This document shows, in pieces, positions 27,241 to 51,326 of a DNA stretch of 64,000 bases; within the stretch, counting starts at the first letter, position 1; each line of letters opens with the position of its first letter. Source of the stretch: a bacterium. Lineage in GTDB: Bacteria; Patescibacteriota; Microgenomatia; UBA1400; UBA12108. The stretch is taken from positions 137,962-201,961 of the forward strand of contig JAJYKS010000001.1 in the NCBI GenBank assembly GCA_021788365.1. Direction: 5' to 3'. The notes below the pieces were generated by a model that saw only the letters and a program-made list of their open reading frames with translations, was not told the DNA's origin and made no database searches. The translations under genes and the position numbers were made by a program.

Positions 27241-27316
27241 GATTTAATTTACAATTTTAACAAATTTTTACTTTTAGTATAGCAATGCATGCCTCGGACT
27301 GTTATGAACTGAGATC

Positions 27317-28186: not shown

Positions 28187-28249
28187 GTTTTTAGCCTTAT
28201 CTATGTTTACAAGATGGCTGGCGCTCCTGAACTATGTGGGAACGTGGTA

Positions 28250-29252: not shown

Positions 29253-30425
29253 CTATTTTGATATATTAGATTGACGATCCTTCCTGAATAACAATCCATA
29301 TAGATAAATTACCGGGAGTGAAAGTATTGTCAAAATAACCAAAGCTTTGGGAGGACCCATGATATCAGCCATTCCACCCAAGAATATGCTCATAACGGTA
29401 AACCCGAGGCTACCACCAAGTGAATTAAGCGAACTCATGGTTGCTCTTTCATGATCGCTAAATTCTTTTTGCATAAGAGTTTTTTCCGATACTGACCCAA
29501 CTCCATACAATAGTGATGGTGCAGCCAAGATTATTGGGGAAAGAACTGTCGGGAACCCGTAAGCGAATAGGCTTACTACTCTGCCAAAAATGCTATCGAA
29601 TAAGAGTATTCTTATTTCTTTGAATTTTCGAATCAGCTTGCCACTAAAAAAGTAACTAAGAGATGCCCCAAAACTTGGTAAGGTTCTAGCTATACCAATT
29701 GCCCAAAGTGGCCAGACGATAGCGGTAAAAGCAGAAGAAAATTCCCATTTGATTTCATTTATGGAATACTCCCAGATAGAAGCTAAACTTAGAAGTCGAA
29801 GTTTCTCATTATGAATAAATAGTCTAAAAGCATTATCAATATGAGCGTAGATATTGGAACTCGTGTGAGTGCGTGGGCGTGGATCAATAAATTGATAGCT
29901 AATATAAAGCGCCGCAATTCCTAAGATAACTGATATCCACAACAAGTAGTGAAATGAGAAACTTGCAACAATTCCTCCAAGGATTGCTGATAATCCCATG
30001 GCGAGTTGTTCGGTTGAACTAACTTTACCCTGATATCCATGGAACTCGCTTTCCAGATGATTATCGGCCAGAGTGTCATAGAGAAAGGCATCGTTGTTGC
30101 CACTGTATAGTGACCGGGATAGACCTTCGAAAATAGCGCCGATGACTAGCCACCAATATGAGGAGCCCACTGCATAAAATATTAAAGCTATAACACGTGA
30201 CCAGGATCCAAGGATAATTGTGACTTTGCGACCAACACGATCAGACCAGATACCAGTTGGTATTTCAAATAAGGCAGAGGTAAGCGTAGTAATACCGAAA
30301 ATCGATGCCCCTAACGCAAAAGAACCAGAGACTCGTGAAAAATAGATGATAGCAAGAGGAGCAAAAAGACTAAATCCAGTAAGGAAGTTGAAAATTGAAA
30401 GTAAATGAACATTTTTCCGGTACAT
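29253..30425 (-). CDS. MFS transporter (possible exporter of cluster product)
   Basis: 390 aa; 12 TM; GIWSDRVGRK MFS motif A. Confidence 0.75.
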   Translation of the reverse strand: MYRKNVHLLSIFNFLTGFSLFAPLAIIYFSRVSGSFALGASIFGITTLTSALFEIPTGIWSDRVGRKVTIILGSWSRVIALIFYAVGSSYWWLVIGAIFEGLSRSLYSGNNDAFLYDTLADNHLESEFHGYQGKVSSTEQLAMGLSAILGGIVASFSFHYLLWISVILGIAALYISYQFIDPRPRTHTSSNIYAHIDNAFRLFIHNEKLRLLSLASIWEYSINEIKWEFSSAFTAIVWPLWAIGIARTLPSFGASLSYFFSGKLIRKFKEIRILLFDSIFGRVVSLFAYGFPTVLSPIILAAPSLLYGVGSVSEKTLMQKEFSDHERATMSSLNSLGGSLGFTVMSIFLGGMADIMGPPKALVILTILSLPVIYLYGLLFRKDRQSNISK

Positions 30426-30467
30426 ATGAAAAGTATATATGGATCAGTGCCTAGTTCGTCTAGGAAA

Positions 30468-31238
30468 CTAGAGCTGTATTTTATTGTTATTAAATTTCTC
30501 TAAGATCTTGATTTCGTTTGACCATATCTCATTTATATTTGGTCCTTTATATAGAATTTCTTGAACCATTTGCAGCATAGGATTATTCTGGTTCGACAAG
30601 TTGAGGTCCAATTTCAGGTTATCTCTTGTAATATATTTATTCATTAAGTCACATCTGACAATTTCTCCTGTCGACATATATAGCAGTAGCTCTCGCTTAG
30701 GATCGCTTGAATATCCCACTTCTATGTCCCACGGAATATTTTTCCCTGATACTAAGTAGAAATACAGATCCACTTCATGTATACCAAGGTCGAAAACTGG
30801 ACCTTCTAAATTAGCTCTATTGGGTTGGAAGCCGAATCTACTACTTCGTATTTTCGAAACGTGGGAAAGATCGACGTTCTTTTTGATAAATGAGACTACT
30901 GGATTATATCTTTCAAGGGTAGATTGGTATAGGATTTTCCCTCTCTCCTCAGCTAAGTTTTCAAGGTTGAGAGATTTATTAACCGATAGACATATAGGTT
31001 TTTCAACAAGTACATTGTAATCACTTTCTAATAAGGTTTTGGCAATGGAGAAATGTGTTTCTGATGGGGTAGAGACGATAACAAGATCAACTGCTGGATG
31101 CATTGAGACAAAGTCTTCTACTGATCTGAAATATGCTTTGTTAGCTATCGAAACAACGTCCACTATGTAATCAGCCGAAATGGCCTTATCATAGTATTTC
31201 CCCATTTTCCCATAACCAATAATGGCGAATTTGGACAT
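30468..31238 (-). CDS. Gfo/Idh/MocA-family NAD(P)-dependent oxidoreductase
   Basis: N-terminal Rossmann GxGxxG (IIGYGKMG); EKP motif (LVEKPI) typical of sugar dehydrogenases of this family. Confidence 0.7.
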   Translation of the reverse strand: MSKFAIIGYGKMGKYYDKAISADYIVDVVSIANKAYFRSVEDFVSMHPAVDLVIVSTPSETHFSIAKTLLESDYNVLVEKPICLSVNKSLNLENLAEERGKILYQSTLERYNPVVSFIKKNVDLSHVSKIRSSRFGFQPNRANLEGPVFDLGIHEVDLYFYLVSGKNIPWDIEVGYSSDPKRELLLYMSTGEIVRCDLMNKYITRDNLKLDLNLSNQNNPMLQMVQEILYKGPNINEIWSNEIKILEKFNNNKIQL

Positions 31239-31239
31239 A

Positions 31240-32310
31240 TTATTCTGCCTCCAAAAATGAAGTGAGTGTTGATGATGCTTTTTCCCAAGTGAGGTCTCTA
31301 CTTAACTGGACATTATTTTTTCCCATGGATTCTCTATTTTCATAGGCCATTGCTATACCATTCCTCCACGAATCAATATTTTTATCAACCAGGGATCCGT
31401 TGATACCATCTTTTAATAACCACCCTATTCTTCCCTTCCCCATAACTATTGGTTTACCTACTGCTAGATATTCGCTAACAGCAATTGGACTACAGTCTAC
31501 TGACACTGGGAACACTAAGACATCAGCAATGTTGGTGTAATTGGGTACTTCCAGCAATGGCACTGCACCTGTCTTTATAACTTGAGGTAAATCTGGCAGA
31601 CTAGCTAGTAGAGGTCCATCACCTACAATAAACAGGAGTTGGTTCTCGTCTATTGAAGAAATAATCAATCTAATATCTTCGTACCATTTACTTAATTTAC
31701 CCGTATAAACTAAAATTTGCTTTTGTTCAAAGCTTATATTGTATTTCTTGGCATATTTTAGCTTTAGTAATTTAATCTTTTCATCTGAATATTTGTAGAA
31801 AATATTTTCATCATATCCATTAGGAATAATTACTGTCTTATTTGTTCTGAGACCTTCTCGTTTAAGTGCTTCAAGCATGGTTGGTGATTGTGTGATTACT
31901 TTTGTTGCTATCTTAATTATGGATTCAAAACCTTTTTTTAATAAGAAATATCTTTCATCTGCTCCAAATTCTGTTAAATACATTTCTTCGTACCAATCAA
32001 TGCAATCAAAAACTATTGGGATCTTAATTGTTGGATTTATCAGAAGTGCACTAAGTGGATTGTCTATCAAAATATAATCATATTGGTGTTTTTGTAGATG
32101 CTGATTTAATTTTTCCTGCTCTATCGATACGTCCGAAATATTGTTTAGTATCTTATGTCTTAAGAATTCGACCCTACACTTACCATCCAAGTGTTGAAGT
32201 AAAAATTGCTCCCTTTGTGGGAAGCCCTGAAAGTACCTTGGCGAAAAATGCTGAATACTTTGTGCGTATACCTTATCACCGACTTTTAGTATCCTTTTCA
32301 TGCAAACCAT
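31240..32310 (-). CDS. Glycosyltransferase family 1 (GT4-like)
   Basis: C-terminal GT-B fold with E-x7-E region (EYLAVGKPIV) typical of GT1. Confidence 0.65.
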   Translation of the reverse strand: MVCMKRILKVGDKVYAQSIQHFSPRYFQGFPQREQFLLQHLDGKCRVEFLRHKILNNISDVSIEQEKLNQHLQKHQYDYILIDNPLSALLINPTIKIPIVFDCIDWYEEMYLTEFGADERYFLLKKGFESIIKIATKVITQSPTMLEALKREGLRTNKTVIIPNGYDENIFYKYSDEKIKLLKLKYAKKYNISFEQKQILVYTGKLSKWYEDIRLIISSIDENQLLFIVGDGPLLASLPDLPQVIKTGAVPLLEVPNYTNIADVLVFPVSVDCSPIAVSEYLAVGKPIVMGKGRIGWLLKDGINGSLVDKNIDSWRNGIAMAYENRESMGKNNVQLSRDLTWEKASSTLTSFLEAE

Positions 32311-33293
32311 TCTTCAAGAGCATTTCTAATTTTTTTCACTTCTCGGTCAGTTAGATTCCATCGATTAGGTACACTAACTATTCTAGACGTCCAATCTGTG
32401 TAATACTTCCTTTCGTTTATAGGAAGAATGTCGTCACCGTAATATACGAGTGTGGCAATCCCCTTCTTCTCCATATACTGCCTAAACTTGTCTCTTTTCT
32501 CTATCAGGAGATTAAACACGGAGTATATATGTCTATCTCCTTTATGTTCGGCCAAGAATGGCTGTATCGTAGGGATTACTTGAAGATATTCCCTGGAAAT
32601 ATCTCGTTGTATCTTAATCCTATCTTCATAGTGAGAGAGCTCGTGTAAAAGGAATTCTGCCTTAATTTCGTCCATTCTTAAATTTAAAGCGATGTTCTCT
32701 GTCATTTTTCCATCTTCTCGTCCGGATTGAATAAAGACTTTCATTTTTTGATACAACTCTTCGTCGTTCGTAACAATGGCTCCTCCATGACCGCATGTAT
32801 GAAGCGACTTGGTAGGGTAGAAACTGTAACAACCCACCACCCCGATAGTACCCACTTTCACCCCTTGAATCTCAGCGCCAAAAGCCTGACAAGCATCTTC
32901 TATTAACACGTTTTTGTCAATTTTGTTGACAAGCCGATTTGGTTGACCATACAAATGAACTAGAGTACTTACGGTTGATGGATCAATAGATATCTTTTGT
33001 TCGAGGATATTTTTGCGATATTTAATTTTGTAGCCTAGTAAACGTGCGGGTTGGTAAGTGGCAGGAAAAGTGTAAGGATCAACTATTAATCTTGAATACT
33101 TTTCTCTTAAGGCCCAATATGCTGCAAGTAGTGAAGATGTCCCGTTATTTGTAAGTAAGACATACTTCACATTTAGATATTCTTTGAGTTTTTCCTCCAG
33201 GTTTCTTATCATGATCCCATCAACCCAGTTGCCGGAATTGTACACTTGGCTCTTATAATCAGAATTTAGTAGGTATATCGGTATATTGTCCAT
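32298..33293 (-). CDS. DegT/DnrJ/EryC1/StrS-family PLP-dependent sugar aminotransferase
   Basis: DACQAFGA and SFYPTKSL (Schiff-base Lys region) motifs. Confidence 0.75.
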   Translation of the reverse strand: MDNIPIYLLNSDYKSQVYNSGNWVDGIMIRNLEEKLKEYLNVKYVLLTNNGTSSLLAAYWALREKYSRLIVDPYTFPATYQPARLLGYKIKYRKNILEQKISIDPSTVSTLVHLYGQPNRLVNKIDKNVLIEDACQAFGAEIQGVKVGTIGVVGCYSFYPTKSLHTCGHGGAIVTNDEELYQKMKVFIQSGREDGKMTENIALNLRMDEIKAEFLLHELSHYEDRIKIQRDISREYLQVIPTIQPFLAEHKGDRHIYSVFNLLIEKRDKFRQYMEKKGIATLVYYGDDILPINERKYYTDWTSRIVSVPNRWNLTDREVKKIRNALEEWFA

Positions 33294-33294
33294 A

Positions 33295-34020
33295 TCATTC
33301 TTCTAAAATAGTTGTGAGCAGCTTAGTTCCCGATGCAGAAATAGGTGTATATGAACTGACCTGGAAGGCCTCGCCGTAGGAAGCTCCCGCAGTATTGCCT
33401 CTCAACGCAAGGCAGCTTTTAATTTTAGACATTAGCCAGTCTTGGCTAGTTTTATGTTCATCTTTAACAGATGCATAACAACTGAAAGCAGCCAACTTAT
33501 TCGCTACGTTCTCACTCGATATTGCAGATATAACTTGAGATTCAAAAGGAGTTGTCATTTCTAGATCGACTTCTCCTTGTAGAATTACTGTTGCACTCCA
33601 TTGAGTTTCCCCACCACATAGTTTGCAGCCACTTTGAAAGTTTGCTTCGGGAATTACTTCCCCTAGAGTACGATGGTCAATATGTTTATCTTTTATGTGA
33701 TGCGTAATTATCAAATCTGGTTTGACCCTTCTAATTTCGCCCATAGTGGCCTGAATTAACCTCCCTTTATCTTTTTGTAGTTCCATATCCACAAAATCTA
33801 GAAAATTTACCTGAAATCCCAATAACTTACTACTAGCTTTCCCCTCTAATTTTGTTCGTAAAATTCGAACTTTTTGTTTTTCGGATGCAAAATAAGCTTG
33901 ATCGTTGTTGGTAAAAAAGCTGACATGAACTTCATGATTTTTCTTAACCAGTTTATCAATCGTTCCTCCGCAAAGGATCGTTTCGTCATCTGGGTGCGCT
34001 AGTAATGCCAGGATTTTCAT
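33295..34020 (-). CDS. PIG-L/LmbE-family N-acetyl-sugar deacetylase
   Basis: AHPDDET zinc-binding motif near N-terminus; downstream HxxH. Confidence 0.75.
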   Translation of the reverse strand: MKILALLAHPDDETILCGGTIDKLVKKNHEVHVSFFTNNDQAYFASEKQKVRILRTKLEGKASSKLLGFQVNFLDFVDMELQKDKGRLIQATMGEIRRVKPDLIITHHIKDKHIDHRTLGEVIPEANFQSGCKLCGGETQWSATVILQGEVDLEMTTPFESQVISAISSENVANKLAAFSCYASVKDEHKTSQDWLMSKIKSCLALRGNTAGASYGEAFQVSSYTPISASGTKLLTTILEE

Positions 34021-34029
34021 TTTGGTCTT

Positions 34030-34749
34030 TTATACCTTTCTTTTAGCTCCCCAGATATCACAATGAAGTCTGCCAAGAAGACGATATCCTTTGACCTTTA
34101 CTGTTTCCACTACTTTTTGAGCATTTTCAGATACCTCTAAAGATGTTTTCCCCTGAGGCATGATAATAATTTTGTCTATGTTAAGTTTGAGTGGCTTGAT
34201 AAAATCATTTTCGATTTCATCTAAGTCATTAGTGTTGTTAACCACAAACTTAAAAATAGAATTTGCTTTATTAATCGCTCTTAAAACATTTTCATTTATT
34301 CTGGCTTGACGGAGATTCCCTGAATTCTCTAACTTGGGAGAACAATTAAACTGACAACGTTCAAGAAGGTATTCTGATGGCATGACTGTCCCGTTCGTTT
34401 CAATTTCTACTGTCCAATCTGGCATTAACTTAATTAACGTTTCAATACTACTTTTCTGTAACAATGGCTCTCCACCGGTAATTACAAGACGTTTCTCGAC
34501 TTTTTTATTTGTACATGTCCATGCAGTAATTATTCTTTCTTTAGTTTCCTCAATACTCCATTTTTGCTTTTCATTCCAGAATTCTGGTAATTTGGCATCC
34601 CAGGCGTAGCGCGTATCACACCAAATACATTTCAAATTACATACACACAACCGCAAGAAACATGCGGGCTTACCCATCGAGATTCCTTCACCCTGGATTG
34701 TATAGAAGACGCCGTCGCCTGATACATTAAAATAGTCGTTATTTAGCAT
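34030..34749 (-). CDS. queE: 7-carboxy-7-deazaguanine synthase QueE-like radical SAM enzyme
   Basis: CNLKCIWCDT cluster (QueE-type CxxxCxxC with preceding Cys) and ITGGEPL SAM-binding motif. Adjacent to queD and folE. Confidence 0.8.
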   Translation of the reverse strand: MLNNDYFNVSGDGVFYTIQGEGISMGKPACFLRLCVCNLKCIWCDTRYAWDAKLPEFWNEKQKWSIEETKERIITAWTCTNKKVEKRLVITGGEPLLQKSSIETLIKLMPDWTVEIETNGTVMPSEYLLERCQFNCSPKLENSGNLRQARINENVLRAINKANSIFKFVVNNTNDLDEIENDFIKPLKLNIDKIIIMPQGKTSLEVSENAQKVVETVKVKGYRLLGRLHCDIWGAKRKV

Positions 34750-35179
34750 AACTAGCCTTACTTGTGGGAGTTTCCCAGATAGTTACCTCTGATAACTTAA
34801 GACCTGTACCAAAATTATCTTTAAACTTTGCTGCTAGCTTTTTATATATCCAATACGCAATTCTTTCCGCAGTTGGGATAAAGGGTACCGATAGATTTTT
34901 TAAAAGCGGGTTGGTTTTAAAAAAGCTAGCCATTACTTGGTCTTTTTCCCAATACATGAACGAGTGATCGCAAATATTAATAATCTCTTCTTGGAGAATG
35001 GTTTTGATTTCACCAAAATCCATTACCATATCCTCACTAGATTCGTTTGATTTATTAATTAACGAACCTTCTAGGCAAATTTCTGCCCTATACCTATGGC
35101 CGTGAACATTTTTGCATTGTGATTTATGATTTGGGATGCGGTGGCCCATATCCCATTCGACTATTTTATATACCTTCAT
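34739..35179 (-). CDS. queD: 6-carboxy-5,6,7,8-tetrahydropterin synthase QueD
   Basis: CxNxHGHxY motif (CKNVHGHRY) and HRIP region. Start set to the internal ATG at 35179 (MKVYKIVEWDMGHRI); the track start 35254 overlaps folE by 89 bp. Confidence 0.8.
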   Translation of the reverse strand: MKVYKIVEWDMGHRIPNHKSQCKNVHGHRYRAEICLEGSLINKSNESSEDMVMDFGEIKTILQEEIINICDHSFMYWEKDQVMASFFKTNPLLKNLSVPFIPTAERIAYWIYKKLAAKFKDNFGTGLKLSEVTIWETPTSKASYAK

Positions 35180-35747
35180 GGCTTTTGGCCTCGCTTGACG
35201 TATCAACCTGATGCATAAATTGCATAACAAGGCTTTTGTCTTTATTAAATACACCCGTCTTTATCAAGGTTCTCATCTGACTAGATCCATTTTTTACGCC
35301 GCGCATGCTCATGCATAGATGCTTAGCTTTGCAATAAACGATTACGCCTTTAGTTCTAAGGTTCTTTTGGATTGTTTCAGCTATTTGTTTGGTTAAACGC
35401 TCCTGTAACTGTAATCTGTGGGAAAATATCCCTACTAATCTGGCAAACTTGGATAAACCTAGAACTTTTTTGTCTGGAATATAGCCGATATGAATCTTTC
35501 CATAAAATGGCAGCAGGTGATGTTCGCAGAGGCTATAAAAGTCTATATTTGAGACTACTACCATTCCGTCATAGTCGTCGCTTTTAAAACATTTGAAAAT
35601 ACTTTTAGGATCTAAGTTATAACCATCAAGTAGTTCGGCATACATTTTAGCGACACGCCTGGGTGTTTCCAACAAACCCTCTCTATTAGGATTTTCACCT
35701 ATTTCTGATAACAATTGCCTAGTAATATCCTCTATTCTTGCTGTCAT
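35166..35747 (-). CDS. folE: GTP cyclohydrolase I FolE
   Basis: CEHHLLPF catalytic motif and the LTKQIAETI region typical of GCH-I. Confidence 0.85.
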   Translation of the reverse strand: MTARIEDITRQLLSEIGENPNREGLLETPRRVAKMYAELLDGYNLDPKSIFKCFKSDDYDGMVVVSNIDFYSLCEHHLLPFYGKIHIGYIPDKKVLGLSKFARLVGIFSHRLQLQERLTKQIAETIQKNLRTKGVIVYCKAKHLCMSMRGVKNGSSQMRTLIKTGVFNKDKSLVMQFMHQVDTSSEAKSHEGI

Positions 35748-35853
35748 ATTTAATAACTATTATTACGACTGCATAATTCTACTATAGGTTTCCAGGCAGG
35801 TAAAGAGCGTCACCAGGGGTGGTTTCGGAGTAACATTTATTAAATAAATTTCT

Positions 35854-36753
35854 CTATTTTGCAGATTTTTCATATTCATATCCAGATAAGTAGAACATTC
35901 TCCAAAAAGCAATAAACAAAGCAGTATCCCATCCATATTTCTCCATAGCCGTTTGATAGTATTCTTTTGCACCCTCAGTAAAATAACCCGTCTGGATTTG
36001 ATTCCATAGATCTGGGCATTTATTTCCCACTCTTTCGATTTGTGCCTCACTTCTGCCGAATTGGAACGCCGTTCTTAATTCGTGCTTTAAATCTATGGGG
36101 TCATGGTAAATGACTGCCTCTTGGGACACAAAGATGGGTACGCCGGCAGCCTTAATTTTTTGATCTAGATATCCATCATCACCAAATCTTACTTCGGGGT
36201 GGTATATATTACCCTCTTCTCCGATAACATCTATGAGCTCTCTCCGCTTTAACCCAAGTCCTGGTGAATATGATTTTGGTTCATAACGATTTTCGTGTGT
36301 CCTGGAATTGCTGATCAATTTACTAACCCTACTACCATCGTTAAGAAATATAACAGTTGGCTGAACTACCAAGTTACCCATCTTCAAGGATTGATTGATT
36401 ATTGCGATGGCGCCAGGTGCAAAAACAGAGTCGCTGTCCATGACAATAATATCGTTATGAGTTGATTCTTTGATCCCAGCTTCTGCAGCAATACTCCAAT
36501 TTCCATACCTGTGAGGGGCGACTTTAATACCTCTTATTTCATCTATAAAATCAGCGTCGTCTGCTACACTTGCCACAACCTCAACGGGCACATCTATAGA
36601 ATCCATACACCGGAGAAGTCCTTCTCTACTTCTTCCACATCTAATGACAACAGAGAGATCAGTTTTTTGATTTAAACCATTTTCAAATTTCATATTGCTT
36701 ACTTTAAGCCCTATATTTGTAGGCATTTTACTACTATAAGTCATTCTAGTCAA
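35854..36753 (-). CDS. Glycosyltransferase family 2
   Basis: N-terminal GT-A fold; DxD (MDSDS) motif. Confidence 0.6.
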   Translation of the reverse strand: MTRMTYSSKMPTNIGLKVSNMKFENGLNQKTDLSVVIRCGRSREGLLRCMDSIDVPVEVVASVADDADFIDEIRGIKVAPHRYGNWSIAAEAGIKESTHNDIIVMDSDSVFAPGAIAIINQSLKMGNLVVQPTVIFLNDGSRVSKLISNSRTHENRYEPKSYSPGLGLKRRELIDVIGEEGNIYHPEVRFGDDGYLDQKIKAAGVPIFVSQEAVIYHDPIDLKHELRTAFQFGRSEAQIERVGNKCPDLWNQIQTGYFTEGAKEYYQTAMEKYGWDTALFIAFWRMFYLSGYEYEKSAK

Positions 36754-36781
36754 AAAAAATATTAGTAGTAAAATATGCTCT

Positions 36782-37981
36782 ATGCTATCTCAAGAGAAGA
36801 ATATTCCTCTAGAATATCATGGTAGAAGTATAGGCGCGGCTGACTATGTTGCCGCAGTTTCTGCGGAAAATGTTCACAATATTATTGGACCTCATAATGT
36901 TTTGTTACAAGTCAATTATGGATGCTATCTTCATTGTGAGATGTGTGATCGCCATAAATGGGTAAAGGAAGGGGTCCCCGTAGATGAAACGATGACAACA
37001 AACCAGCTGTTGGGATTGGTTGATGAGCTTTCGGCCATGGGAACCAGGCGAATTACAATTGTTGGAACAGAACCCGTCATGAGGAAAGATTTGACTCTTA
37101 TGCTCGGGAGAATCAGAGAGAATAATATAAAACCAGAATTATATACGGCCGGTATAGTACTATCAGATGAGTTGATTGAGTCGATATTGTTAACATCAAC
37201 AGATGTGGCATTTTCTTTAGATGGTTTTAATGAGAATAGCCATAATCGCATAAGAGTCCCAAATAATGAGTTCAATGCCTATGCGCGGACACTAGGTTCG
37301 ATAGAGCGGTTAACAAAAGCAAGGGCGGCAAAAAATATTAGCCAAGAAAACGTTAGAATAACGGCAAATTTCACCATTCAACGGAATAACATTAGTGATT
37401 TAGCGCTAGTAACACCAGAACAAATTGATTTATGCGGTTTAGACGTTTTGCGGATGTCTGTGGTACACGGTGAGGGTAGCTATGCTTTAGTAAGTGAAGA
37501 CATACCGATAATATTAGAGTTTATGCAAAGGATGAAAGCGAATTCATCGCGTACTGAAATATCATTTTCAAATGCATTGGAATATCTTGCTAACAATTCG
37601 CTTACCCCCCAAGATTTTAATGTAAATACTCTTATTCCTTCACGAATCGCTGATGGCACTAATAAATTAAAGTGCCACATCGCAGAATACAGTACGATGA
37701 TTGATCCGAAAGGAGATGTCCGTCCTTGCCTGTATTTGTATGACGATAACGGTTCGTTTGACTCAAGTGATCGAGATCAGTTTGTGATGGGAAACGTAAA
37801 AAATGATTCGTTTAGAGCAATTTGGAATGGTGAAGCATATACCACTTTTAGAAGGTCAAAGGAATACCCGGATTTGAAGAGTGGCAGTCGTTGTCGTACA
37901 TGCGAATACACTGATCAGTTTGAAGAGATGGATCAAATAATTGCCTTATCAAAAATTAACGATATTCAGATTGGTTGGTAA
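36782..37981 (+). CDS. Radical SAM / SPASM-domain protein
   Basis: CYLHCEMC (CxxxCxxC) near N-terminus; C-terminal Cys cluster CLYLYD...CRTCEY consistent with SPASM/twitch auxiliary cluster. Confidence 0.7.
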   Translation: MLSQEKNIPLEYHGRSIGAADYVAAVSAENVHNIIGPHNVLLQVNYGCYLHCEMCDRHKWVKEGVPVDETMTTNQLLGLVDELSAMGTRRITIVGTEPVMRKDLTLMLGRIRENNIKPELYTAGIVLSDELIESILLTSTDVAFSLDGFNENSHNRIRVPNNEFNAYARTLGSIERLTKARAAKNISQENVRITANFTIQRNNISDLALVTPEQIDLCGLDVLRMSVVHGEGSYALVSEDIPIILEFMQRMKANSSRTEISFSNALEYLANNSLTPQDFNVNTLIPSRIADGTNKLKCHIAEYSTMIDPKGDVRPCLYLYDDNGSFDSSDRDQFVMGNVKNDSFRAIWNGEAYTTFRRSKEYPDLKSGSRCRTCEYTDQFEEMDQIIALSKINDIQIGW

Positions 37982-39168
37982 ATATGTTAATCGAAGGCAT
38001 ACACTCGTTTCACATTAACGAATCAGGGGCGCCCACAGGAGGAGCCGAACGTTATTTAATAGCGCTTCATCAGGAATTACAGGCTTCTGGAAATCCCGCA
38101 ATATTGATATACGGCCGTAATGAGCCTGGGACTTATCTTCCGCCTGATGGTTCTACAATTGTAGAAGGAATTGATTTGGCAGATGAGCCAGAATCTTCAA
38201 GAGCTGGGTTCCTACAGCTATTAAAACATAATAAACCTGATTTAATTCACTTTCATAATCTAAATAACACCTCCCTTATTTCTCAGATGTCTACTACTCA
38301 AACAACGGTAAGGACAGTACATGATTCTAGATTATTTTGTCCAATGGAGTTCAGAATGAAGAATAATGGAGAATTATGTAATGAAGCGGCAGGATTAAAC
38401 TGTCTTGCTTGTATGAGTGATTTCCAAATGGATAATGACGAATCCATTACGAGATTAAAACAAACGATGCAAGAAATTGAAGCTACAAAACAAGTGTCAA
38501 TTCTTGTAACTCCAAGCAATTATATTAGGGAGCAACTAATTCTTAATCAAGTTGACGACTCTAAGATCATAGTTATACCTCCATTCTTATTAAACGAGAT
38601 AGATACTTCATCTTCACATATGGAGAAAGAAACAACCGATGTTCTTTTTGTAGGAAGAATTGTTAGATCAAAGGGACTTCATCTCTTACTCGAAAGTTTG
38701 GTAGAGTTGCCGAATGATACAACTTTAACCATCGTTGGAGATGGACCTGATTTGAATAACAATATCGAACTATCTAGACGATTAAAATTAGGTAACAGGG
38801 TAAGCTTTGTTGGATGGGCAAATTCTAACCAGTTGAGCCACTATTATCGTCGATCCAAGGTATTAGCAGTTCCATCGATGGGTCCTGAAGCGTTTGGGTT
38901 AGTTGGATTAGAAGCTATGGCAGAGGGAAAACCAGTCGTGGCTTTTGACTCTGGTGGAATTAACCAATGGTTAGTTGATGGCATTAATGGATATTTGGTT
39001 TCTAGGGGCAATGTAGAAGATCTGACTGACAAAATTGGTCGACTAATTAATAATCAGGACTTGAGAAATAGTTTTGGCCATAATGGATTATCCATGATAC
39101 ATGAAACTTTTAATCGGAAAGCTCATGTTGATAGACTTCTTACTATATACCAATCAATACTCACCTAG
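37975..39168 (+). CDS. Glycosyltransferase family 1
   Basis: GT-B C-terminal domain with EAFGLVGLEAMAEGKPVV (E-x7-E). Confidence 0.75.
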   Translation: MVNMLIEGIHSFHINESGAPTGGAERYLIALHQELQASGNPAILIYGRNEPGTYLPPDGSTIVEGIDLADEPESSRAGFLQLLKHNKPDLIHFHNLNNTSLISQMSTTQTTVRTVHDSRLFCPMEFRMKNNGELCNEAAGLNCLACMSDFQMDNDESITRLKQTMQEIEATKQVSILVTPSNYIREQLILNQVDDSKIIVIPPFLLNEIDTSSSHMEKETTDVLFVGRIVRSKGLHLLLESLVELPNDTTLTIVGDGPDLNNNIELSRRLKLGNRVSFVGWANSNQLSHYYRRSKVLAVPSMGPEAFGLVGLEAMAEGKPVVAFDSGGINQWLVDGINGYLVSRGNVEDLTDKIGRLINNQDLRNSFGHNGLSMIHETFNRKAHVDRLLTIYQSILT

Positions 39169-39182
39169 TATAAAATTAGATC

Positions 39183-39902
39183 ATGAGAAAAGATTATTCT
39201 TTGGTCGCTAAGGAAGTTGGTAAAGAATACGAGTCTCACCCTAACTTAATCGGTATTTTGTGGATTGGCTCCTCTTCTTTTGGGATAACTGATCGCTTTG
39301 CAGATATTGATATTCGTTTATTAATTGATAAATCAAATAAACAATTCCCAATGCAACAATTTGTTAGACATGGAATCAATATTGAAGTAGACGAAATAAG
39401 TTGGGATTGGTTGATGAAAAATCATGCCATTGATAGTGAAGAGCGCTGGATAAGAGAGAAAGGGGTTGTCCTATATGATCCTCATAAGCGAATTGCTAAA
39501 AGATACACATTTTTGAAGAGAAAGATGAGGGTTTCAACCAACAGACAATTATGGGAAGAATTTAAGGATATTTTTTATAGTAACGACATTGAGAATTGTC
39601 TAAGGAGAGATGATATTGTTACCTCCACCCTTTATCTTAATAGAGGAATCGAAAAGATGCTTAAGTTTATCTTTTTGTTTAACGAGAAGCCCGTCCCACC
39701 GTTTAAATGGCGGTGGTATTTTGTACGTCAGGATAAAATTCTTCCATCAAAAATAACTGATTTAATGGAAGATATTATAAAAACTAGTGACTCTATAAAT
39801 AATAAATTGGAAAAATTAATTAGTATAGAAAGAGAGTTTCAAAAACTGATGATAGCAAAGGGATTTCCCAAAGAGCAGGTTATGGAGCATTGGCGGTTTT
39901 AA
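39183..39902 (+). CDS. Pol-beta-superfamily nucleotidyltransferase
   Basis: GSSSFGITDRFADID matches the GSx9-13Dx[DE] NTase motif. Confidence 0.55.
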   Translation: MRKDYSLVAKEVGKEYESHPNLIGILWIGSSSFGITDRFADIDIRLLIDKSNKQFPMQQFVRHGINIEVDEISWDWLMKNHAIDSEERWIREKGVVLYDPHKRIAKRYTFLKRKMRVSTNRQLWEEFKDIFYSNDIENCLRRDDIVTSTLYLNRGIEKMLKFIFLFNEKPVPPFKWRWYFVRQDKILPSKITDLMEDIIKTSDSINNKLEKLISIEREFQKLMIAKGFPKEQVMEHWRF

Positions 39903-39903
39903 A

Positions 39904-41433
39904 TCAAACGTTCCATGTTAAATAGGGATGAAAAAGGTCGATATTTCTGAAAATAGTGCTGTAGAAAATCATAGCTCGTTCATCGTCTCCATCTGCTTCC
40001 CTCAGCTTATCCTTTAACCTTGCTTGCAGTGGACTAATTCTGTGGTTATTACGGTTGAGATAGATTTCAATGTCTCTTCCGAACATTGCCGTCCCCTGGT
40101 TAAGCTTATCCTCAATCTCGGCAAGAAGTGGAACCATGTCATTAAACCCAGATTCGAAATATGGGTGGGTGAAAGCCTGGAAACCATATGATGTAAGGAA
40201 TTCAGGAGGCACATTTAAGAGCCTACCATTTTGTTGCATCTTCTTAAAAACTAGAGTGTCTGGCTCCATCATCATATTAGATACTATGAACCCTGAAGGG
40301 TTCAATTCTTGAAGCTGGTCAATCTCATGTCCTATGTTTTGTCTGCTATGCCAATCGTGACCAATGATAAATGTGGTAGCGATTTTGACACCTGCTGATT
40401 GATATTCCTTAATTTCTTCTTTGAGGTCAACATTATCATTTTTTGCATATGGATTAAGCATTGATTCAACGCCAATATTGACACAGGTAACACATAAATC
40501 TCCCTCAGTTATTTCTGCAGGCGAATATTGTTTTAGTATTTTTGAAGATGTGGTAGTAGCAAGTTCGACCGTATATCCTAAGTTGCGGCATCTCTTAAAT
40601 ATTTCTTTCCAAGTGGGAATATCACCCATACCTTGAGGATCAGCTAAGGAGAGAGAAATGACTTCATCTTCTTTTCCCAGCATTCTGTGTGCATAGTCTA
40701 TGGCTGAAATGATTTCATCTGCAGAATGGGGAGCGGTGAACTTGCCTTTGAATTGTGCCGTGGCTGGGCAGAAGTCACACTGATAGAAGCACCCATAACT
40801 AGACATCATCACGCCTATGGTGCTATTTTTAGCTTGGTTGCTGTAGGTAGTTTGGGTATGAGATGGTACGACGGATACCTTGAGTGGACGGCTGTCTTCG
40901 CCCAATAGCTTTCTTAAATCATCGATTTGGTTACCTTTAAGTGAGTAGTCTGATAATTGTGAAGTCTCCGGGATGGTAGCGCCAACTGCACCAGCTATTA
41001 TTTTTATTTCAGGGTGAACTTTACGTAAATGTTCGCTAATATCCCGAAAAACGCTATAGCCATTAAGGTAGATGGAAACAACTAAAGCTTTAATGTCTGG
41101 CTCATTTTTTAGTGTTTTTTCGAGATTTTCGATTGATATAGGATCTCGAATAACGATCCCATCTTTTTGAGTATTTATATTTAAGAAATTACCTGGTGGA
41201 TTCTCAGGCGCCCACGAAAAGGAAAAATTCTCACCTGCTTGTCTTTCTTTTAAAGCAGATATGTGTTCTTCTAAGAAATTTGCATCATAGAATTGTGGGT
41301 TTCCCCGCTGGATATATTCTCTCCCAACCTGATCAAGGTATTCAAGCTGCTTTGCTCTATTAGTTGTATTGTAGTCATACGATTGAGCGACTCCATATGC
41401 TATGGGACCTTCAATGACTGTCTCTTTTTGCAT
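39904..41433 (-). CDS. B12-binding-domain radical SAM protein (class B)
   Basis: 509 aa; N-terminal Rossmann-like cobalamin-binding region; CFYQCDFC (CxxxCxxC) radical SAM cluster. Confidence 0.7.
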   Translation of the reverse strand: MQKETVIEGPIAYGVAQSYDYNTTNRAKQLEYLDQVGREYIQRGNPQFYDANFLEEHISALKERQAGENFSFSWAPENPPGNFLNINTQKDGIVIRDPISIENLEKTLKNEPDIKALVVSIYLNGYSVFRDISEHLRKVHPEIKIIAGAVGATIPETSQLSDYSLKGNQIDDLRKLLGEDSRPLKVSVVPSHTQTTYSNQAKNSTIGVMMSSYGCFYQCDFCPATAQFKGKFTAPHSADEIISAIDYAHRMLGKEDEVISLSLADPQGMGDIPTWKEIFKRCRNLGYTVELATTTSSKILKQYSPAEITEGDLCVTCVNIGVESMLNPYAKNDNVDLKEEIKEYQSAGVKIATTFIIGHDWHSRQNIGHEIDQLQELNPSGFIVSNMMMEPDTLVFKKMQQNGRLLNVPPEFLTSYGFQAFTHPYFESGFNDMVPLLAEIEDKLNQGTAMFGRDIEIYLNRNNHRISPLQARLKDKLREADGDDERAMIFYSTIFRNIDLFHPYLTWNV

Positions 41434-41532
41434 GTGGTATATTATATACTAACCTTATAAGGTTATATTTATACGTTAAATAAGTCATATACTATAGGGA
41501 GTTGGGTCAAAGTCAATTTCCAGTCAGAGCAA

Positions 41533-42522
41533 ATGAAAAAAATAATATCGAACATACCACCGATGGAATGGGGCAGCGCATCAAAACTCATGGATGACAG
41601 GCCAGCAGTTCTTATTACCAGCCGTACAGCACTGAAAGTATCGCAACCCTTTATAAATAACATTAACATTAATGAAACAGTTATTATTGAAAATAGTCAT
41701 CGCGAGTATGTAGAGTCAATTCAAATTAAAAGACAGGATATCGCTATAGCCTATTTAGTAGGAGCAGGTCAAGTTAATGATATAGGGCGATATCTATCCT
41801 ACAAATGGCAATTGCCTGTAATAAGTATTCCTACCGCGATAACTGCAGATGCTTTTCTAGTAGATTGTACTGGGTTAAGAGAGAACAGAGGAGTAACGTA
41901 TCAGCCATCAAAAAGAGCGAATAAAATTGTACTTGATTGGGAATTGTTAAAAAAAGCACCTTGGAATATCAATGTCAGTGGCTGTGGAGATGTACTATCA
42001 ATTTTTACTGGACTTTGGGACTGGCAACATTTCGATGAATTTTACGATGTGGCTGTAGCAACCGAAGCAAAAGGTATTCTTGATGCTTTAATTAGCCAAA
42101 AAAACTCGATCGTTCGGCCTTCTCAAAAAGCATTGGAAATGCTCGTGAATTGCTTAGCAATGGAAGTTCAGTTGTGTTATCTATATGGTAATAGCAGGCC
42201 AGAAGAAGGTGGTGAGCACTTTTTCGCTTATTGTATAGAAAACAAGATAGGGCATTGTTTGCATGGTGAGATTGTGGGTTTTGGTATCCTTTTGACAGGC
42301 TTCTTGCAAAATCAAGATATAACCCAGATTAAAAACTTTATGGATACGATTAGTATGAGCTATTTACCTAGTAATATTAATGAAAAGGTGGTTATAGATA
42401 CACTAAGAGAACTACCCCAATATGTCAGAGAACAAAATTTGCGTTCTAGCATCTATAATAATTTTAACTATGATCAATCTAAGGAGAAGATAAAGTCTTT
42501 CTTTAAGTTAATAAACCTATGA
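41533..42522 (+). CDS. Dehydroquinate-synthase-like / glycerol-1-phosphate dehydrogenase-like enzyme
   Basis: GAGQVNDIG (GGGxxxD-like NAD motif), ISIPTAITADA and HCLHGEIVGFG metal-binding His motifs of the DHQS/Fe-ADH superfamily. Confidence 0.55.
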   Translation: MKKIISNIPPMEWGSASKLMDDRPAVLITSRTALKVSQPFINNININETVIIENSHREYVESIQIKRQDIAIAYLVGAGQVNDIGRYLSYKWQLPVISIPTAITADAFLVDCTGLRENRGVTYQPSKRANKIVLDWELLKKAPWNINVSGCGDVLSIFTGLWDWQHFDEFYDVAVATEAKGILDALISQKNSIVRPSQKALEMLVNCLAMEVQLCYLYGNSRPEEGGEHFFAYCIENKIGHCLHGEIVGFGILLTGFLQNQDITQIKNFMDTISMSYLPSNINEKVVIDTLRELPQYVREQNLRSSIYNNFNYDQSKEKIKSFFKLINL

Positions 42523-43193
42523 ACATTAAAACTAAATTTAACGAGGAGCTACTAATTGGTTTGGAGCGACAACCAACCAAAAAGGCTGTGCTATTGTTTT
42601 CTGGTGGAATTGATAGCACTGCTGCGGGAATTTTACTGAAAGAAAAAGGCTATCGAGTATTTCCACTATTTATCGATTATGGTCAAAGTTCGTTGGCAGC
42701 AGAACAATTAGTTGTTAACAAAATTGCTATCAAATTAGGTTTTGAGCCTGTTAGAGTCATAACTACTGAATTGCTCAAACAACTAACGAAAAGTAATCTC
42801 TTGGGTAAAGAGGCAGTCGATGATAGCCAAGCTTGGGTTCCAGGAAGAAATACTTTATTCATGATCATTGCCGGCATTTTTGCAAAGCAGGTTGATGCTG
42901 ACGGGGTATGTATTGGTTATATGCTTGATGACAATTTTGTTTTTGGAGATAATGATTATTTTCATCATAAGAATGTTGAGCAATTATTATCCAAGTCTTT
43001 TTTACAACCAATGGAAGTATTTATGCCTATTGTTAGTTACAGGAAAAAGGATTTAGTCACGCTTCTTATGGAGAAAGGCTTGTTAAGTGATACTGTTTCG
43101 TGTTGGAATGCTAAAGTAGTTAGGGGTAAGGTGGTTTCTTGCGGAAGTTGTGCGAATTGTTTAGAGAGAAATAGCTTGTTGGTTGTTAAATAA
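42519..43193 (+). CDS. queC: 7-cyano-7-deazaguanine synthase QueC
   Basis: PP-loop SGGIDST; C-terminal zinc-binding CWNAK...CGSCANC typical of QueC; 4-bp overlap with upstream gene. Confidence 0.85.
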   Translation: MNIKTKFNEELLIGLERQPTKKAVLLFSGGIDSTAAGILLKEKGYRVFPLFIDYGQSSLAAEQLVVNKIAIKLGFEPVRVITTELLKQLTKSNLLGKEAVDDSQAWVPGRNTLFMIIAGIFAKQVDADGVCIGYMLDDNFVFGDNDYFHHKNVEQLLSKSFLQPMEVFMPIVSYRKKDLVTLLMEKGLLSDTVSCWNAKVVRGKVVSCGSCANCLERNSLLVVK

Positions 43194-43223
43194 AATAAAA
43201 ATTATAGCTTTATATGTACCGGT

Positions 43224-43601
43224 ATGGCAGAATTTAAAATCGAAGTTGGAACACGATTTAAAGTAAATCCGGGAGTTTTTAAGAACTCTGGAATAGAAAG
43301 GGTTATCTTAAACCCTAAGCCCCATAACAATCGAGACGAAATTCTTGCCGCCCTATTTGTATCAGAACCTGACTGTATGTTATATCAGTTTCATGAGTTG
43401 TCTGCTGGATATATCTGGAATTTAGGTAAAGTGCCAAAATTGTCGAACGACGAAATTATTCGATATCTAGAAACATCTTTGAGAATCGGTAGGATTTCTG
43501 CTGGACAAATGAGGGATGTTAAACAACAAATCAGAGATGGTATATCAAAAAGGAATATTGTAATTCAGCGATTAGATAGCATTTTGGAAAGAGCTTATTG
43601 A
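43224..43601 (+). CDS. Hypothetical protein
   Basis: 125 aa; no motif. Confidence 0.35.
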   Translation: MAEFKIEVGTRFKVNPGVFKNSGIERVILNPKPHNNRDEILAALFVSEPDCMLYQFHELSAGYIWNLGKVPKLSNDEIIRYLETSLRIGRISAGQMRDVKQQIRDGISKRNIVIQRLDSILERAY

Positions 43602-44295: not shown

Positions 44296-44301
44296 AAAAA
44301 C

Positions 44302-50448: not shown

Positions 50449-50676
50449 TTATGAAAATAGTTCCGAAAGCTTGATTTTGAGTGTTTTGGCAAGCTTACCT
50501 GTATTGTCTAGGGAAACATTCTGTTCGCCTCTTTCGATAGCACCAATATAAGTTCTGTGGATATTTGCCTTGAATCCTAGGTTCTCTTGAGAAAGTCCTA
50601 AGCTCTTGCGAATTTCTCTAACCCTTTGACCAAATTGCTTACGCAATCTCAGATTAGGTTTTTGTTTTGTCGTCAT
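50449..50676 (-). CDS. XRE-family (Cro/CI-like) HTH transcriptional regulator
   Basis: 75 aa; helix-turn-helix LGLSQENLGFKANIHRTYIGAIERG. Confidence 0.8.
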   Translation of the reverse strand: MTTKQKPNLRLRKQFGQRVREIRKSLGLSQENLGFKANIHRTYIGAIERGEQNVSLDNTGKLAKTLKIKLSELFS

Positions 50677-50785
50677 ATACTAGAGGTTATCTAGCTGCAG
50701 TCAATAACTCTACAGACAATAACTAGCAATTGTTCGCTATTCCTGATATATTGATGACAATAAATAGCACCTGGAAAGGAGTAAT

Positions 50786-51271: not shown

Positions 51272-51326
51272 GAACAGAAATTGTAATTATACCTGGCAAG
51301 TTGTACCTACAAGGTATAATTAGCTT

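Follow-up and report, generated by a model that had tools for sequence, protein, structure and literature searches.

A probable biosynthetic cluster for an amino-sugar-decorated 7-deazaguanine small molecule on a low-GC mobile island of a Patescibacteria genome

Which product would need a 7-deazaguanine pathway encoded among glycosyltransferases (GTs) and radical S-adenosylmethionine (SAM) enzymes is the question raised by a locus in a bacterium of the candidate phyla radiation (CPR)/Patescibacteria. The locus lies in a 64-kb stretch of contig JAJYKS010000001.1 (assembly GCA_021788365.1), which as a whole is called the window here, with positions counted from its first letter. At 29253-43193, a tightly packed 15-gene cluster sits on a low-GC island (Table 1). 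The original prediction had offered either an amino-sugar-decorated 7-deazapurine small molecule or a preQ0-modified glycan. Pfam and NCBIfam profile searches recovered every gene that it had named, each in its place, and the comparative evidence favored the small-molecule branch, encoded by a cluster on a mobile island. These results indicated that 29253-43193 is probably a biosynthetic cluster for an exported small molecule that has a 7-deazaguanine core with amino sugars, and sequence comparison places it in a rare, modular and conserved family rather than making it a one-off island curiosity.

The chemistry that leads from GTP through dihydroneopterin triphosphate (H2NTP) and 6-carboxytetrahydropterin (CPH4) to 7-carboxy-7-deazaguanine (CDG) is established for the FolE, QueD and QueE families. 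All three enzymes are present in the cluster, with their catalytic motifs and in overlapping genes. FolE exceeded its curated cutoff, while QueD (start 35179 taken from the public gene call) reached 83.1 bits against a TIGR03367 cutoff of 89.25. The five NCBIfam QueE models all ranked top for QueE and all remained under cutoff (best TIGR03963, 94.1 vs. 260), and the PDB sequence matches of this protein were solely QueE structures (6nhl, 5tgs, and 4njg). The four Que and FolE calls, QueC included, thus held as best profile matches, with QueC, QueD, and QueE below the equivalog cutoffs. As judged from motifs and gene content, CDG formation by FolE, QueD, and QueE is well supported. Of the complete preQ0 pathway read from these genes at first, the part up to CDG was retained, while formation of the nitrile preQ0 was not established, the QueC-family enzyme being non-canonical.

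Canonical QueC, the preQ0 synthase of PF06508 cluster 1, is characterized by SGGxDS, YxQxHxxE, VPxRN, and YPDC motifs, K165, and C(x)8CxxCxxC with Y189; its mutants Y35A, R99A, Y131A, and Y189A are inactive and Y131F is partly active (Libby et al., 2026, PMC13329287). These features were compared in seven QueC orthologs of the cluster family. The SGGxDS loop, FSGGIDST in the window, was invariant across family members, and VPxRN was kept as WVPGRN in the seven orthologs. In place of YxQxHxxE, however, the window protein has YGQSSLAAE, that is, YxQ(x)5E with Ser for His and a one-residue insertion as in Cap9; YGQS[AS]xxAE was found in 7/7 orthologs and YxQ(x)5E in nearly all of the closest 40 representatives. 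YPDC was replaced by FGDN, or by FGDS in some orthologs, with the Cys gone in 7/7. Four Cys are arranged as C(x)12CxxCxxC, zinc binding being plausible, and Y189 is replaced by Trp (SCWNA for TCYNG) in all seven. The seven orthologs also have a loop deletion in common with Cap9. The equivalog cutoffs were not reached (TIGR00364, 107.5 vs. 150.3 bits; NF008317, 67 vs. 378), and the best PDB match was Cap9 (9nto_B, 2.9e-16), followed by QueC structures (1.9e-12 and 3e-10). Only 14 proteins at E<=1e-30 were retrieved by this QueC from 1.84 billion representatives.

Cap9 and RoyL employ the QueC fold to couple adenylated CDG with amines (PMC13329287; bioRxiv 10.64898/2026.04.15.718813). Based on that chemistry, the QueC-family enzyme of the window may make an amide, for example with a deacetylated amino sugar; its product may be such a conjugate or, equally, preQ0. 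In the roseomycin A enzyme RoyL and in Cap9, the QueC-family protein adenylates CDG and hands it to an amine, leaving the nitrile unfinished. The window protein shares the Cap9-type YxQ(x)5E and loop deletion, but differs from both: RoyL reportedly retains Tyr41, His45, and Glu48, while the window has Ser for the His; Cap9 retains YxDC, modifies a protein N-terminus and adjoins a CD-NTase, while the window has FGDN and neither CD-NTase nor Cap10. The acceptor amine of the window enzyme, if any, would be an amino sugar.

The arrangement of the genes ties this pathway to sugar chemistry. The genes of FolE, QueD, QueE, the PIG-L deacetylase, the DegT aminotransferase, a GT, the Gfo/Idh/MocA dehydrogenase, and the major facilitator superfamily (MFS) transporter make up a single minus-strand run in which intergenic distances range from -14 to +42 nt, indicating that the 7-deazaguanine and sugar genes form one operon. 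The genes of an Fe-ADH dehydrogenase and QueC share a 4-nt overlap, and the gene of a 509-aa radical SAM enzyme is convergent with plus-strand genes for a radical SAM/SPASM enzyme (rSAM-SPASM), a second GT4, and a nucleotidyltransferase (NTase)-like protein. That the glycosyl genes might belong to an unrelated locus was not borne out, as Que and sugar genes share operons and co-travel across many genomes, and their chance juxtaposition is excluded by synteny and operon fusion.

Three GTs had been predicted, and two proved to be GT-B/GT4 enzymes, while the third, a weak GT2 match, was assigned to the GT-A fold by its AlphaFold model. GT1b, the GT-B enzyme of the minus-strand run, is kept at 49-67% identity across related loci (numbered with an L below). 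The second GT4 matched BshA (3e-27) and MshA (6.7e-25) best, under their cutoffs, and occurs in some relatives only, with orthologs in L007 and L094. BshB1 was the top NCBIfam match of the PIG-L protein (7.3e-23) and UDP-N-acetylglucosamine (GlcNAc) 3-dehydrogenase that of the Gfo/Idh/MocA protein (3.5e-19), both under cutoff; in related loci the Gfo gene is invariably found within a syntenic PIG-L-DegT-GT-Gfo block. For the MFS protein, the top NCBIfam matches were the drug-efflux families Tet and EntS, and homologs of 41-46% identity are found within the related clusters L009 and L109. The proposed pol-beta NTase obtained a family match, although a weak one (DUF4037); its PDB match was the putative NTase 2rff (0.058), a G-S-x(n)-D-x-D motif was recognized by eye, and the protein is kept at 38-61% identity in relatives.

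The GT-A model (pLDDT 93.1) has a GT2-like fold with the MDSDS motif, and its Foldseek matches were WrtF, hyaluronan synthases, AvpGT, and TarP/TarS. Based on this model, the GT-A protein is a candidate for the enzyme attaching the first sugar. Its gene is always paired with that of rSAM-SPASM, one of the two further radical SAM enzymes that had been expected, the 509-aa protein being the other. In profile searches of the PDB, rSAM-SPASM matched CteB, SkfB, BlsE (7vob, 2.8e-6), and BtrN (4.9e-6), BlsE and BtrN being no better than the maturases of ribosomally synthesized and post-translationally modified peptides (RiPPs). Its unusual CxxxCxMC motif has been described for BlsE and MilG (PMC3715490). 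PDB sequence searches gave no useful match for the 509-aa radical SAM enzyme, the GT-A, or the NTase-like protein. Structurally, the 509-aa enzyme was closest to AprD4 (14% identity, TM score ~0.5), with B12-dependent methylases nearly as good. The substrate of AprD4 is an aminoglycoside, and its partner is the NADPH-dependent reductase AprD3 (PMC5461906). The best NCBIfam match of the 509-aa enzyme was HpnJ, at 45.9 vs. 577.6 bits and over the radical SAM core only; glucosamine glycosides are the substrates of HpnJ and of PtmC, both of them radical SAM enzymes (PMC9092360). The adjacent protein, first taken for a relative of dehydroquinate synthase (DHQS), instead matched Fe-ADH_2, glycerol-1-phosphate (G1P) dehydrogenase, and glycerol dehydrogenase (NF002022 G1P dehydrogenase, 1.4e-33, under cutoff; PDB 3ce9, 4rgq, and 5fb3) and is not a DHQ synthase. 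Its assignment as a cyclase of the DHQS or 2-deoxy-scyllo-inosose synthase (DOIS) type for 2-deoxystreptamine was rejected, because no DHQ_synthase match was obtained and G1P/glycerol dehydrogenases matched best.

Family neighborhoods were drawn from the homologs of the 509-aa radical SAM enzyme, the 31 GT-A homologs, and metagenomic loci of the QueC subfamily, the scan anchored on which yielded ~40 further loci. Among 5.8 billion proteins, the 509-aa enzyme had 14 homologs and the GT-A family comprised 31 proteins; only one of 185,579 GTDB species representatives, a metagenome-assembled genome (MAG) of Candidatus Roizmanbacteria, carried a 509-aa ortholog. The same gene set at 45-75% amino-acid identity was found in the independent loci L003, L005, L007, L011 (Candidatus Roizmanbacteria), and L094, with full, window-like versions in L003, L005, L007, and L094. 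GC contents were 34-41% in all loci with measured composition, and the family, as sampled, is restricted to CPR/Patescibacteria-like low-GC loci. Its near-constant part consists of FolE1 or FolE2, QueD, QueE, this QueC subfamily, Fe-ADH, and the 509-aa radical SAM enzyme. In 6/6 core loci, the Fe-ADH gene adjoins that of the 509-aa radical SAM enzyme, and in L003, L005, L007, L008, and L010 it lies directly upstream of QueC; most other loci with coverage have both Fe-ADH and QueC.

Around this part, two modules vary: the PIG-L/DegT/GT4/Gfo block, and the GT-A and rSAM-SPASM pair with or without the GT4 and NTase-like genes. Other variable tailoring genes encode aminoglycoside phosphotransferase (APH)-like kinases, GNATs, SAM methyltransferases, a TobZ/NodU-type carbamoyltransferase, and an HDAC-like deacetylase, further variable genes being BpsA with AdoMet decarboxylase, Asp/Glu racemase, and GlyRS- or SerRS-like proteins. 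PF08241 methyltransferases are carried by relatives, while the window cluster is without a SAM O-methyltransferase. The compact relative L093 holds FolE, QueD, QueE, QueC-like, GT-A, rSAM-SPASM, and a KsgA/Erm-like gene, and some relatives hold the 509-aa enzyme without any GT. Several relatives are chromosomal, adjoining ftsZ or ribosomal protein genes, and loci of the family frequently adjoin recombinases. The variable tailoring enzymes are of the kinds known from aminoglycoside or nucleoside antibiotics. A constant scaffold pathway surrounded by changing sets of genes for tailoring, transport, and resistance-type functions is the pattern of an antibiotic-type biosynthetic cluster.

Three further observations concern the relatives. 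On L091 (ENA ERZ19399218 scaffold_358, 8169-13802), GT4(-conflict), GT-A, and rSAM-SPASM genes occur with GT2, GNAT, and methyltransferase genes and no Que gene, surrounded by an integrase, resolvases, a relaxase, a TraG-like ATPase, a reverse transcriptase, NERD, and PLD genes of a conjugative/integrative element; without 7-deazaguanine genes, the sugar module thus has an independent role on mobile elements. Truncated class II aminoacyl-tRNA synthetase (aaRS) paralogs were seen in relatives that lack the GT-A module, GlyRS-like in L008 and L009 and SerRS-like (279.7 against the SerRS cutoff of 301.65) in L010, L108, L116, and L135. In L008-L010, the aaRS-like gene immediately precedes that of the 509-aa radical SAM enzyme, and such relatives often add an Asp/Glu racemase and a GNAT. 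These paralogs could be amino-acid-adding enzymes or resistant target copies, hinting at aminoacylated product variants; they were set aside for the window, which has none. Outside the CPR loci, the next-closest 509-aa relatives among GTDB representatives were Asgard proteins of 24-29% identity (L012-L014, from Hodarchaeota, Promethearchaeota, and Odinarchaeota MAGs), for which a link to calditol-synthase-like sugar carbocyclization is conceivable.

The genes that accompany the pathway may also bear on the target of the product. rRNA methyltransferases and efflux are classical alternative self-protection devices. Among 25 unique loci, a KsgA/Erm-like (PF00398) protein of 318-354 aa was present in 15, with its best scores against KsgA/RsmA (129-150, cutoff 171) and the next best against Erm (95-108, cutoff 212), while an MFS homolog was present only in the window, L009, and L109. 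No PF00398 homolog was found anywhere in the 64-kb window, nor was the methyltransferase seen in L109; the L009 sequence is incomplete and uninformative here. The methyltransferase in some loci and the pump in others suggest, at the level of sequence, alternative means of self-resistance and a ribosomal target. The glycosylated 7-deazapurine is thus possibly ribosome-targeting.

The following route is proposed, in which all steps past CDG are inferred from family membership, structure similarity, and gene co-occurrence. FolE, QueD, and QueE would convert GTP in turn to H2NTP, CPH4, and CDG. The QueC-family enzyme would adenylate the CDG carboxylate and then form either preQ0 or an amide conjugate. 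The GT-A and its rSAM-SPASM partner would attach a first sugar and tailor it radically, by analogy with HuiG of huimycin and BlsD/BlsE of blasticidin S. The PIG-L/DegT/GT4/Gfo block would add a GlcNAc-type sugar that is deacetylated, oxidized, and transaminated to an amino or diamino sugar, as in BshA/BshB, MshA/MshB, BtrM/BtrD, and pactamycin PtmJ/PtmG/PctP/PctC. The AprD4-like radical SAM enzyme and Fe-ADH may act as a radical dehydratase and reductase pair for deoxygenation, or alternatively in an HpnJ-type carbocycle-forming step. Further decoration would be due to the second GT4 and the NTase-like protein, and the MFS pump, in whose place most relatives have the KsgA/Erm-like methyltransferase, would export the product.

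The nearest known systems are the huimycin and dapiramicin clusters. In the huimycin-type linkage, GlcNAc is bound N-glycosidically to the 2-amino group of O6-methylated preQ0. Like the window, the clusters of huimycin (Kutzneria albida) and dapiramicin combine FolE/QueD/QueE/QueC with a GT-B/GT4-type enzyme (PF13439) and no TGT; UDP-GlcNAc is the sugar donor with which HuiG N-glycosylates a preQ0 derivative, and CDG amides are the products of the QueC-like RoyL (bioRxiv 10.64898/2026.04.15.718813). In the window, the Que genes are in operons with two GTs of the PF13439/PF00534 type. However, huimycin requires only an O-methyltransferase and one GT, with a LuxR regulator and in an actinomycete, while the window cluster, in a CPR host, encodes three GTs and as many radical SAM enzymes, together with a deacetylase, an aminotransferase, a dehydrogenase, Fe-ADH, and a non-canonical QueC. 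The toyocamycin/sangivamycin type, which had been named as another model, lost ground, as no PF00156, PF00478, PF00709, or PF00206 match was obtained in the cluster or its relatives. Clusters of this type, tubercidin included, encode a ToyH/TubE-like phosphoribosyltransferase, a GMP reductase, paralogs of adenylosuccinate synthetase and lyase, and a HAD phosphatase.

With the aminoglycoside pathways of butirosin, neomycin, and apramycin (BtrM/BtrD, BtrS, BtrN, AprD4/AprD3, and TobZ), the window shares enzyme families and logic: GlcNAc transfer by a GT4 followed by PIG-L/LmbE deacetylation, a DegT aminotransferase, and, as a candidate counterpart, a radical SAM enzyme with a putative partner reductase for oxidation or dehydration of the sugar. 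Its relatives add APH-like kinases, GNAT, carbamoyltransferase, and rRNA methyltransferase. In contrast to the aminoglycosides, the window has no DHQ-synthase-type sugar phosphate cyclase and no evidence of 2-deoxystreptamine, and the aglycone would be 7-deazaguanine. In the blasticidin S, mildiomycin, and gougerotin pathways (BlsD/BlsE), a free base is joined to a nucleoside diphosphate sugar by a GT, followed by a CxxxCxMC radical SAM enzyme and transamination, and the target is the ribosome. The compact layout of L093 recalls BlsD/BlsE, with base glycosylation and then radical sugar tailoring, although these hexopyranosyl nucleoside pathways use cytosine and the base here would be 7-deazaguanine. 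The pactamycin (PtmJ/PtmG/PctP/PctC/PtmC) and bacteriohopanetetrol cyclitol ether (HpnI/HpnK/HpnJ) pathways, like the window, bring together a GT, a deacetylase, a Gfo-type enzyme, a DegT enzyme, and an HpnJ-like radical SAM enzyme (PMC9092360).

Several points weigh against an exported, amino-sugar-bearing 7-deazaguanine. For formation of the base-sugar (or CDG-amine) bond, no confident choice of enzyme could be made. The scores of QueC, QueD, and QueE are under curated equivalog thresholds, and the match of the 509-aa enzyme to AprD4 is an architecture-level similarity. The MFS protein could be an importer instead, and the KsgA/Erm-like enzyme of relatives could be a biosynthetic N-methyltransferase. 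The GT4/GT-A/rSAM-SPASM module also occurs Que-free on L091, the GT4 matches GT4-conflict, and the cluster adjoins defense-type genes. Further, we know of no CPR bacterium recognized as a producer of such metabolites.

One alternative is a cell-associated glycoconjugate or low-molecular-weight cofactor, for example a bacillithiol- or mycothiol-like glucosamine conjugate or a G1P glycolipid head group with a 7-deazaguanine amide, for the CPR cell's own use. The closeness of the GT4 to BshA/MshA, of PIG-L to BshB1, and of Fe-ADH to G1P dehydrogenase would suit it, a QueC-type ligase would complete a GT/deacetylase/ligase series like MshA/B/C, and some relatives are chromosomal. However, the family is rare and patchy (14-31 proteins per signature family), recombinases often adjoin the cluster, no lipid-carrier or membrane-anchoring enzymes are encoded, and an efflux pump or rRNA methyltransferase is more in keeping with a product that is toxic and exported than with a cofactor for housekeeping, which makes this alternative quite unlikely.

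Hypermodification or defense of nucleic acids was also considered, in which 7-deazaguanine would be inserted in DNA or RNA by an unrecognized transglycosylase and then glycosylated, with an epigenetic, anti-restriction, or defense role. Dpd, queuosine, and archaeosine systems use the same FolE/QueD/QueE/QueC precursor route, and Dpd is likewise found on genomic islands. The cluster is carried by an island with recombinase and terminase genes, and encoded next to it are a ParB-DNA methyltransferase, a RecB-like nuclease, and a PDC-S37-like helicase as well as an AbiU2-like HEPN protein; the GT4 match to PF20706, the Que-free module of the conjugative/integrative element, the closeness of QueC to the defense enzyme Cap9, and the KsgA/Erm-like proteins of relatives, which are RNA-directed enzymes, point the same way. 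However, no TGT, DpdA, or QueF domain was found in the scanned ORFs of the window (nearly all of those with at least 150 aa and not nested antisense in a called gene), in agreement with the lack of linked queuosine genes first noticed, and no QueA, QueG/H, or ArcS was linked to the Que genes in these ORFs or in related loci with Pfam lists. TGT, DpdA, QueF, and phosphoribosyltransferase were also absent from the loci with precomputed Pfam lists and from recurrent unassigned metagenome ORFs, the marker tblastn over ~25 loci being unable to detect TGT/DpdA. Unlike the Dpd, queuosine, and archaeosine systems, the window and the relatives with domain scans thus have no DpdA/TGT, DpdB-K, QueF/QueA/QueG/QueH, or ArcS. 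The sole Dpd match in PADLOC was a trivial one, of 21.8 bits, between a DpdJ helicase motif and the 1529-aa helicase, and IMG/VR, with 2.9 million viral contigs, contained no orthologs of the GT-A or radical SAM families. The neighboring helicase and nuclease were tried as Dpd components and rejected, given the PADLOC result and the lack of conservation of these genes beside the cluster elsewhere. Further, the position of several relatives near ftsZ or ribosomal protein genes and a set of MFS, APH, GNAT, carbamoyltransferase, and aaRS-like genes typical of small-molecule pathways leave a modification system very improbable.

It is scarcely credible that the Que genes merely supply preQ0 for tRNA queuosine beside an unrelated glycan locus: a tgt gene could sit elsewhere in the genome, as the TGT scan was limited to the 64-kb window, and FolE, QueD, and QueE are chemically ordinary, but Que and sugar genes overlap in the same operons and stay together despite extensive rearrangement, QueC is non-canonical, the genes are on a horizontally acquired island with a GC content 14 points under that of the host, and there are no Wzx/Wzy or initiating-transferase genes. 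The preQ0-modified glycan was likewise unsupported, since neither Wzx/Wzy nor a polyprenyl-phosphate transferase or lipid carrier enzyme was present.

7-Deazapurine natural products (toyocamycin, tubercidin, huimycin, dapiramicin, and roseomycin) are bioactive and almost all from actinomycetes, and CPR/Patescibacteria are regarded as biosynthetically minimal. In a 2026 survey of ~2 million genomes, CPR bacteria are unmentioned in the main text (bioRxiv 10.64898/2026.04.15.718813). Read as a small-molecule cluster, the locus looks like an undescribed antibiotic-type pathway in the CPR, a phylum in which it was not expected, with core enzymes that are new and tailoring that resembles that of aminoglycosides. 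The cluster family would extend 7-deazapurine chemistry to a phylum deemed biosynthetically minimal and offer new enzymology in the non-canonical QueC, the AprD4-like radical SAM enzyme with Fe-ADH, and the GT-A/rSAM-SPASM pair. It possibly provides a new ribosome-directed scaffold with its own resistance methyltransferase, of relevance to resistance surveillance, and a handle on the chemical interaction of episymbiotic CPR cells with hosts or competitors. A bolder version, rather unlikely as a whole, is that CPR bacteria carry, and exchange on mobile elements, a family of clusters for a new class of ribosome-targeting "deazaguanine aminoglycoside or hexosyl-nucleoside" antibiotics, in which a Cap9-like QueC ligates CDG to an amino sugar by mycothiol/bacillithiol logic, the AprD4-like/Fe-ADH pair deoxygenates or carbocyclizes the sugar, and a KsgA/Erm-like enzyme or an MFS pump protects. 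If true, CPR cells would use the compound in their episymbiotic life, as a weapon or to control the host.

Table 1. Features of the cluster, its island, and neighboring genes (window positions; values after family names are E-values unless given in bits)
Feature	Position	Strand	Matches and remarks
MFS transporter	29253-30425	-	PF07690 3.7e-27; last gene of the long minus-strand operon; putative exporter/self-protection
Gfo/Idh/MocA NAD-dependent sugar dehydrogenase	30468-31238	-	PF01408 1.6e-15
GT-B (GT4-type) glycosyltransferase GT1b	31240-32310	-	Glycos_transf_1, Glyco_trans_1_4, Glyco_transf_4
DegT/DnrJ/EryC1-type pyridoxal phosphate (PLP) sugar aminotransferase	32298-33293	-	PF01041 8.9e-54; LegC-/PseC-like
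PIG-L (LmbE-type) N-acetylhexosamine deacetylase	33295-34020	-	PF02585 2.4e-25
QueE-like radical SAM enzyme (CPH4 to CDG)	34030-34749	-	CNLKCIWC motif (CxxxCxxC)
QueD (6-carboxytetrahydropterin synthase)	34739-35179	-	PF01242 2e-30; CKNVHGH motif (CxxxHGH)
FolE, GTP cyclohydrolase I	35166-35747	-	PF01227 1.7e-71; NF006826 237.5 bits, above cutoff of 162
GT-A fold (GT2-like) glycosyltransferase	35854-36726	-	weak PF00535 1.4e-4; MDSDS motif (DxD)
Radical SAM/SPASM enzyme	36782-37981	+	PF04055, PF13186; CxxxCxMC motif
GT4 glycosyltransferase, extra sugar	37984-39168	+	Glycos_transf_1 2.8e-38, Glyco_transf_4, GT4-conflict (PF20706)
Small pol-beta-type NTase-like protein (DUF4037)	39183-39902	+	DUF4037 1.6e-4; weak assignment
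509-aa radical SAM enzyme	39904-41433	-	N-terminal Rossmann (B12-binding-like) domain and radical SAM barrel; AprD4-like architecture
Fe-ADH_2 NAD(P)-dependent dehydrogenase	41533-42522	+	PF13685; G1P dehydrogenase/glycerol dehydrogenase-like
Non-canonical QueC-family ATP-dependent enzyme	42519-43193	+	PF06508 2.8e-35, 122 bits
125-aa ORF 3' of QueC	43224-43601	+	cluster membership doubtful
AbiU2-like HEPN protein	43660-44295	-	adjoins cluster
TM0106-family RecB/Cas4-like nuclease with RNase H-like domain	44302-45804	-	
1529-aa SF1 helicase with MTES_1575 REase domain	within 43660-50390	-	
ParB_N-N6/N4 DNA methyltransferase fusion	52093-53430		
HTH_Tnp_1_2 protein, possible small terminase	53388-53831		
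TerL-like (terminase large subunit-like) gene	53791-55275		
Large serine recombinase	55300-56604		
tRNA-Gln	59832-59905	-	Rfam; low-GC region ends nearby
Low-GC (37-44%) island with cluster as cargo	25600-59830	.	composition; genome ~52% GC

The island that has the cluster as its cargo is mobile, of a phage-like or integrative type. The island had been put at 35% GC in a 57% GC genome, of which the low-GC island stood but not the figures, as the cluster (29253-43601) has 37.4% and the flank at 1-25500 has 51.7%; the source of the cluster is presumably a lower-GC CPR lineage. The host was recognized as a CPR/Patescibacteria bacterium of Microgenomates type from a flanking MacB-type permease, whose best named relatives (~70% identity) are from Candidatus Roizmanbacteria, Woesebacteria, and Gottesmanbacteria. 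The exact cluster was present on a 580-kb contig of MAG GCA_027372535.1 and in one ENA assembly and was not found in E. coli genomes. Rfam detected the tRNA-Gln alone in the window and no preQ1 riboswitch, and no flanking direct repeats beyond chance-level short matches were found as att sites of the island, as expected with a serine recombinase. Besides the recombinase, terminase-like, and methyltransferase genes in Table 1, the mobile/phage-like module at 50449-56604 has a small helix-turn-helix gene and a tRNA_anti-like OB protein; it may represent what is left of a prophage, or else a satellite-like element, in a CPR genome.

At the right end of the cluster, the 125-aa ORF had no Pfam, NCBIfam, or PADLOC match and no tblastn match among the related loci. 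The 1529-aa helicase, whose gene overlaps that of the nuclease by 4 nt, matched PDC-S37, a PADLOC candidate, almost from end to end (9e-63) and ProA and Hhe partially. By tblastn, the three defense-type genes were not found beside the cluster in other loci. Farther right, the low-GC cargo at 56582-59652 comprises genes for a HAD-GNAT fusion protein (56582-57733), a histidine phosphatase, a P-loop protein that is small and kinase-like, and an alpha/beta hydrolase. By tblastn, the GNAT portion of the fusion weakly matched (3.8e-5) the cluster-accompanying GNAT of relatives, and the fusion could be a gene for resistance or tailoring that has been displaced. The left margin of the island (26719-29041, minus strand, GC ~43%) encodes a ClpP-like protease of 173 aa and a DUF2806/TIGR03899 protein of 289 aa and has a further ORF of 263 aa without a family match. 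Within the cluster, a perfect 18-nt direct repeat, GTTGGGATTGGTTGATGA, occurs at 37009-37026 in the rSAM-SPASM gene and 2391 nt away at 39400-39417 in the NTase-like gene; it is the sole exact repeat of such length in the island and probably arose by chance.

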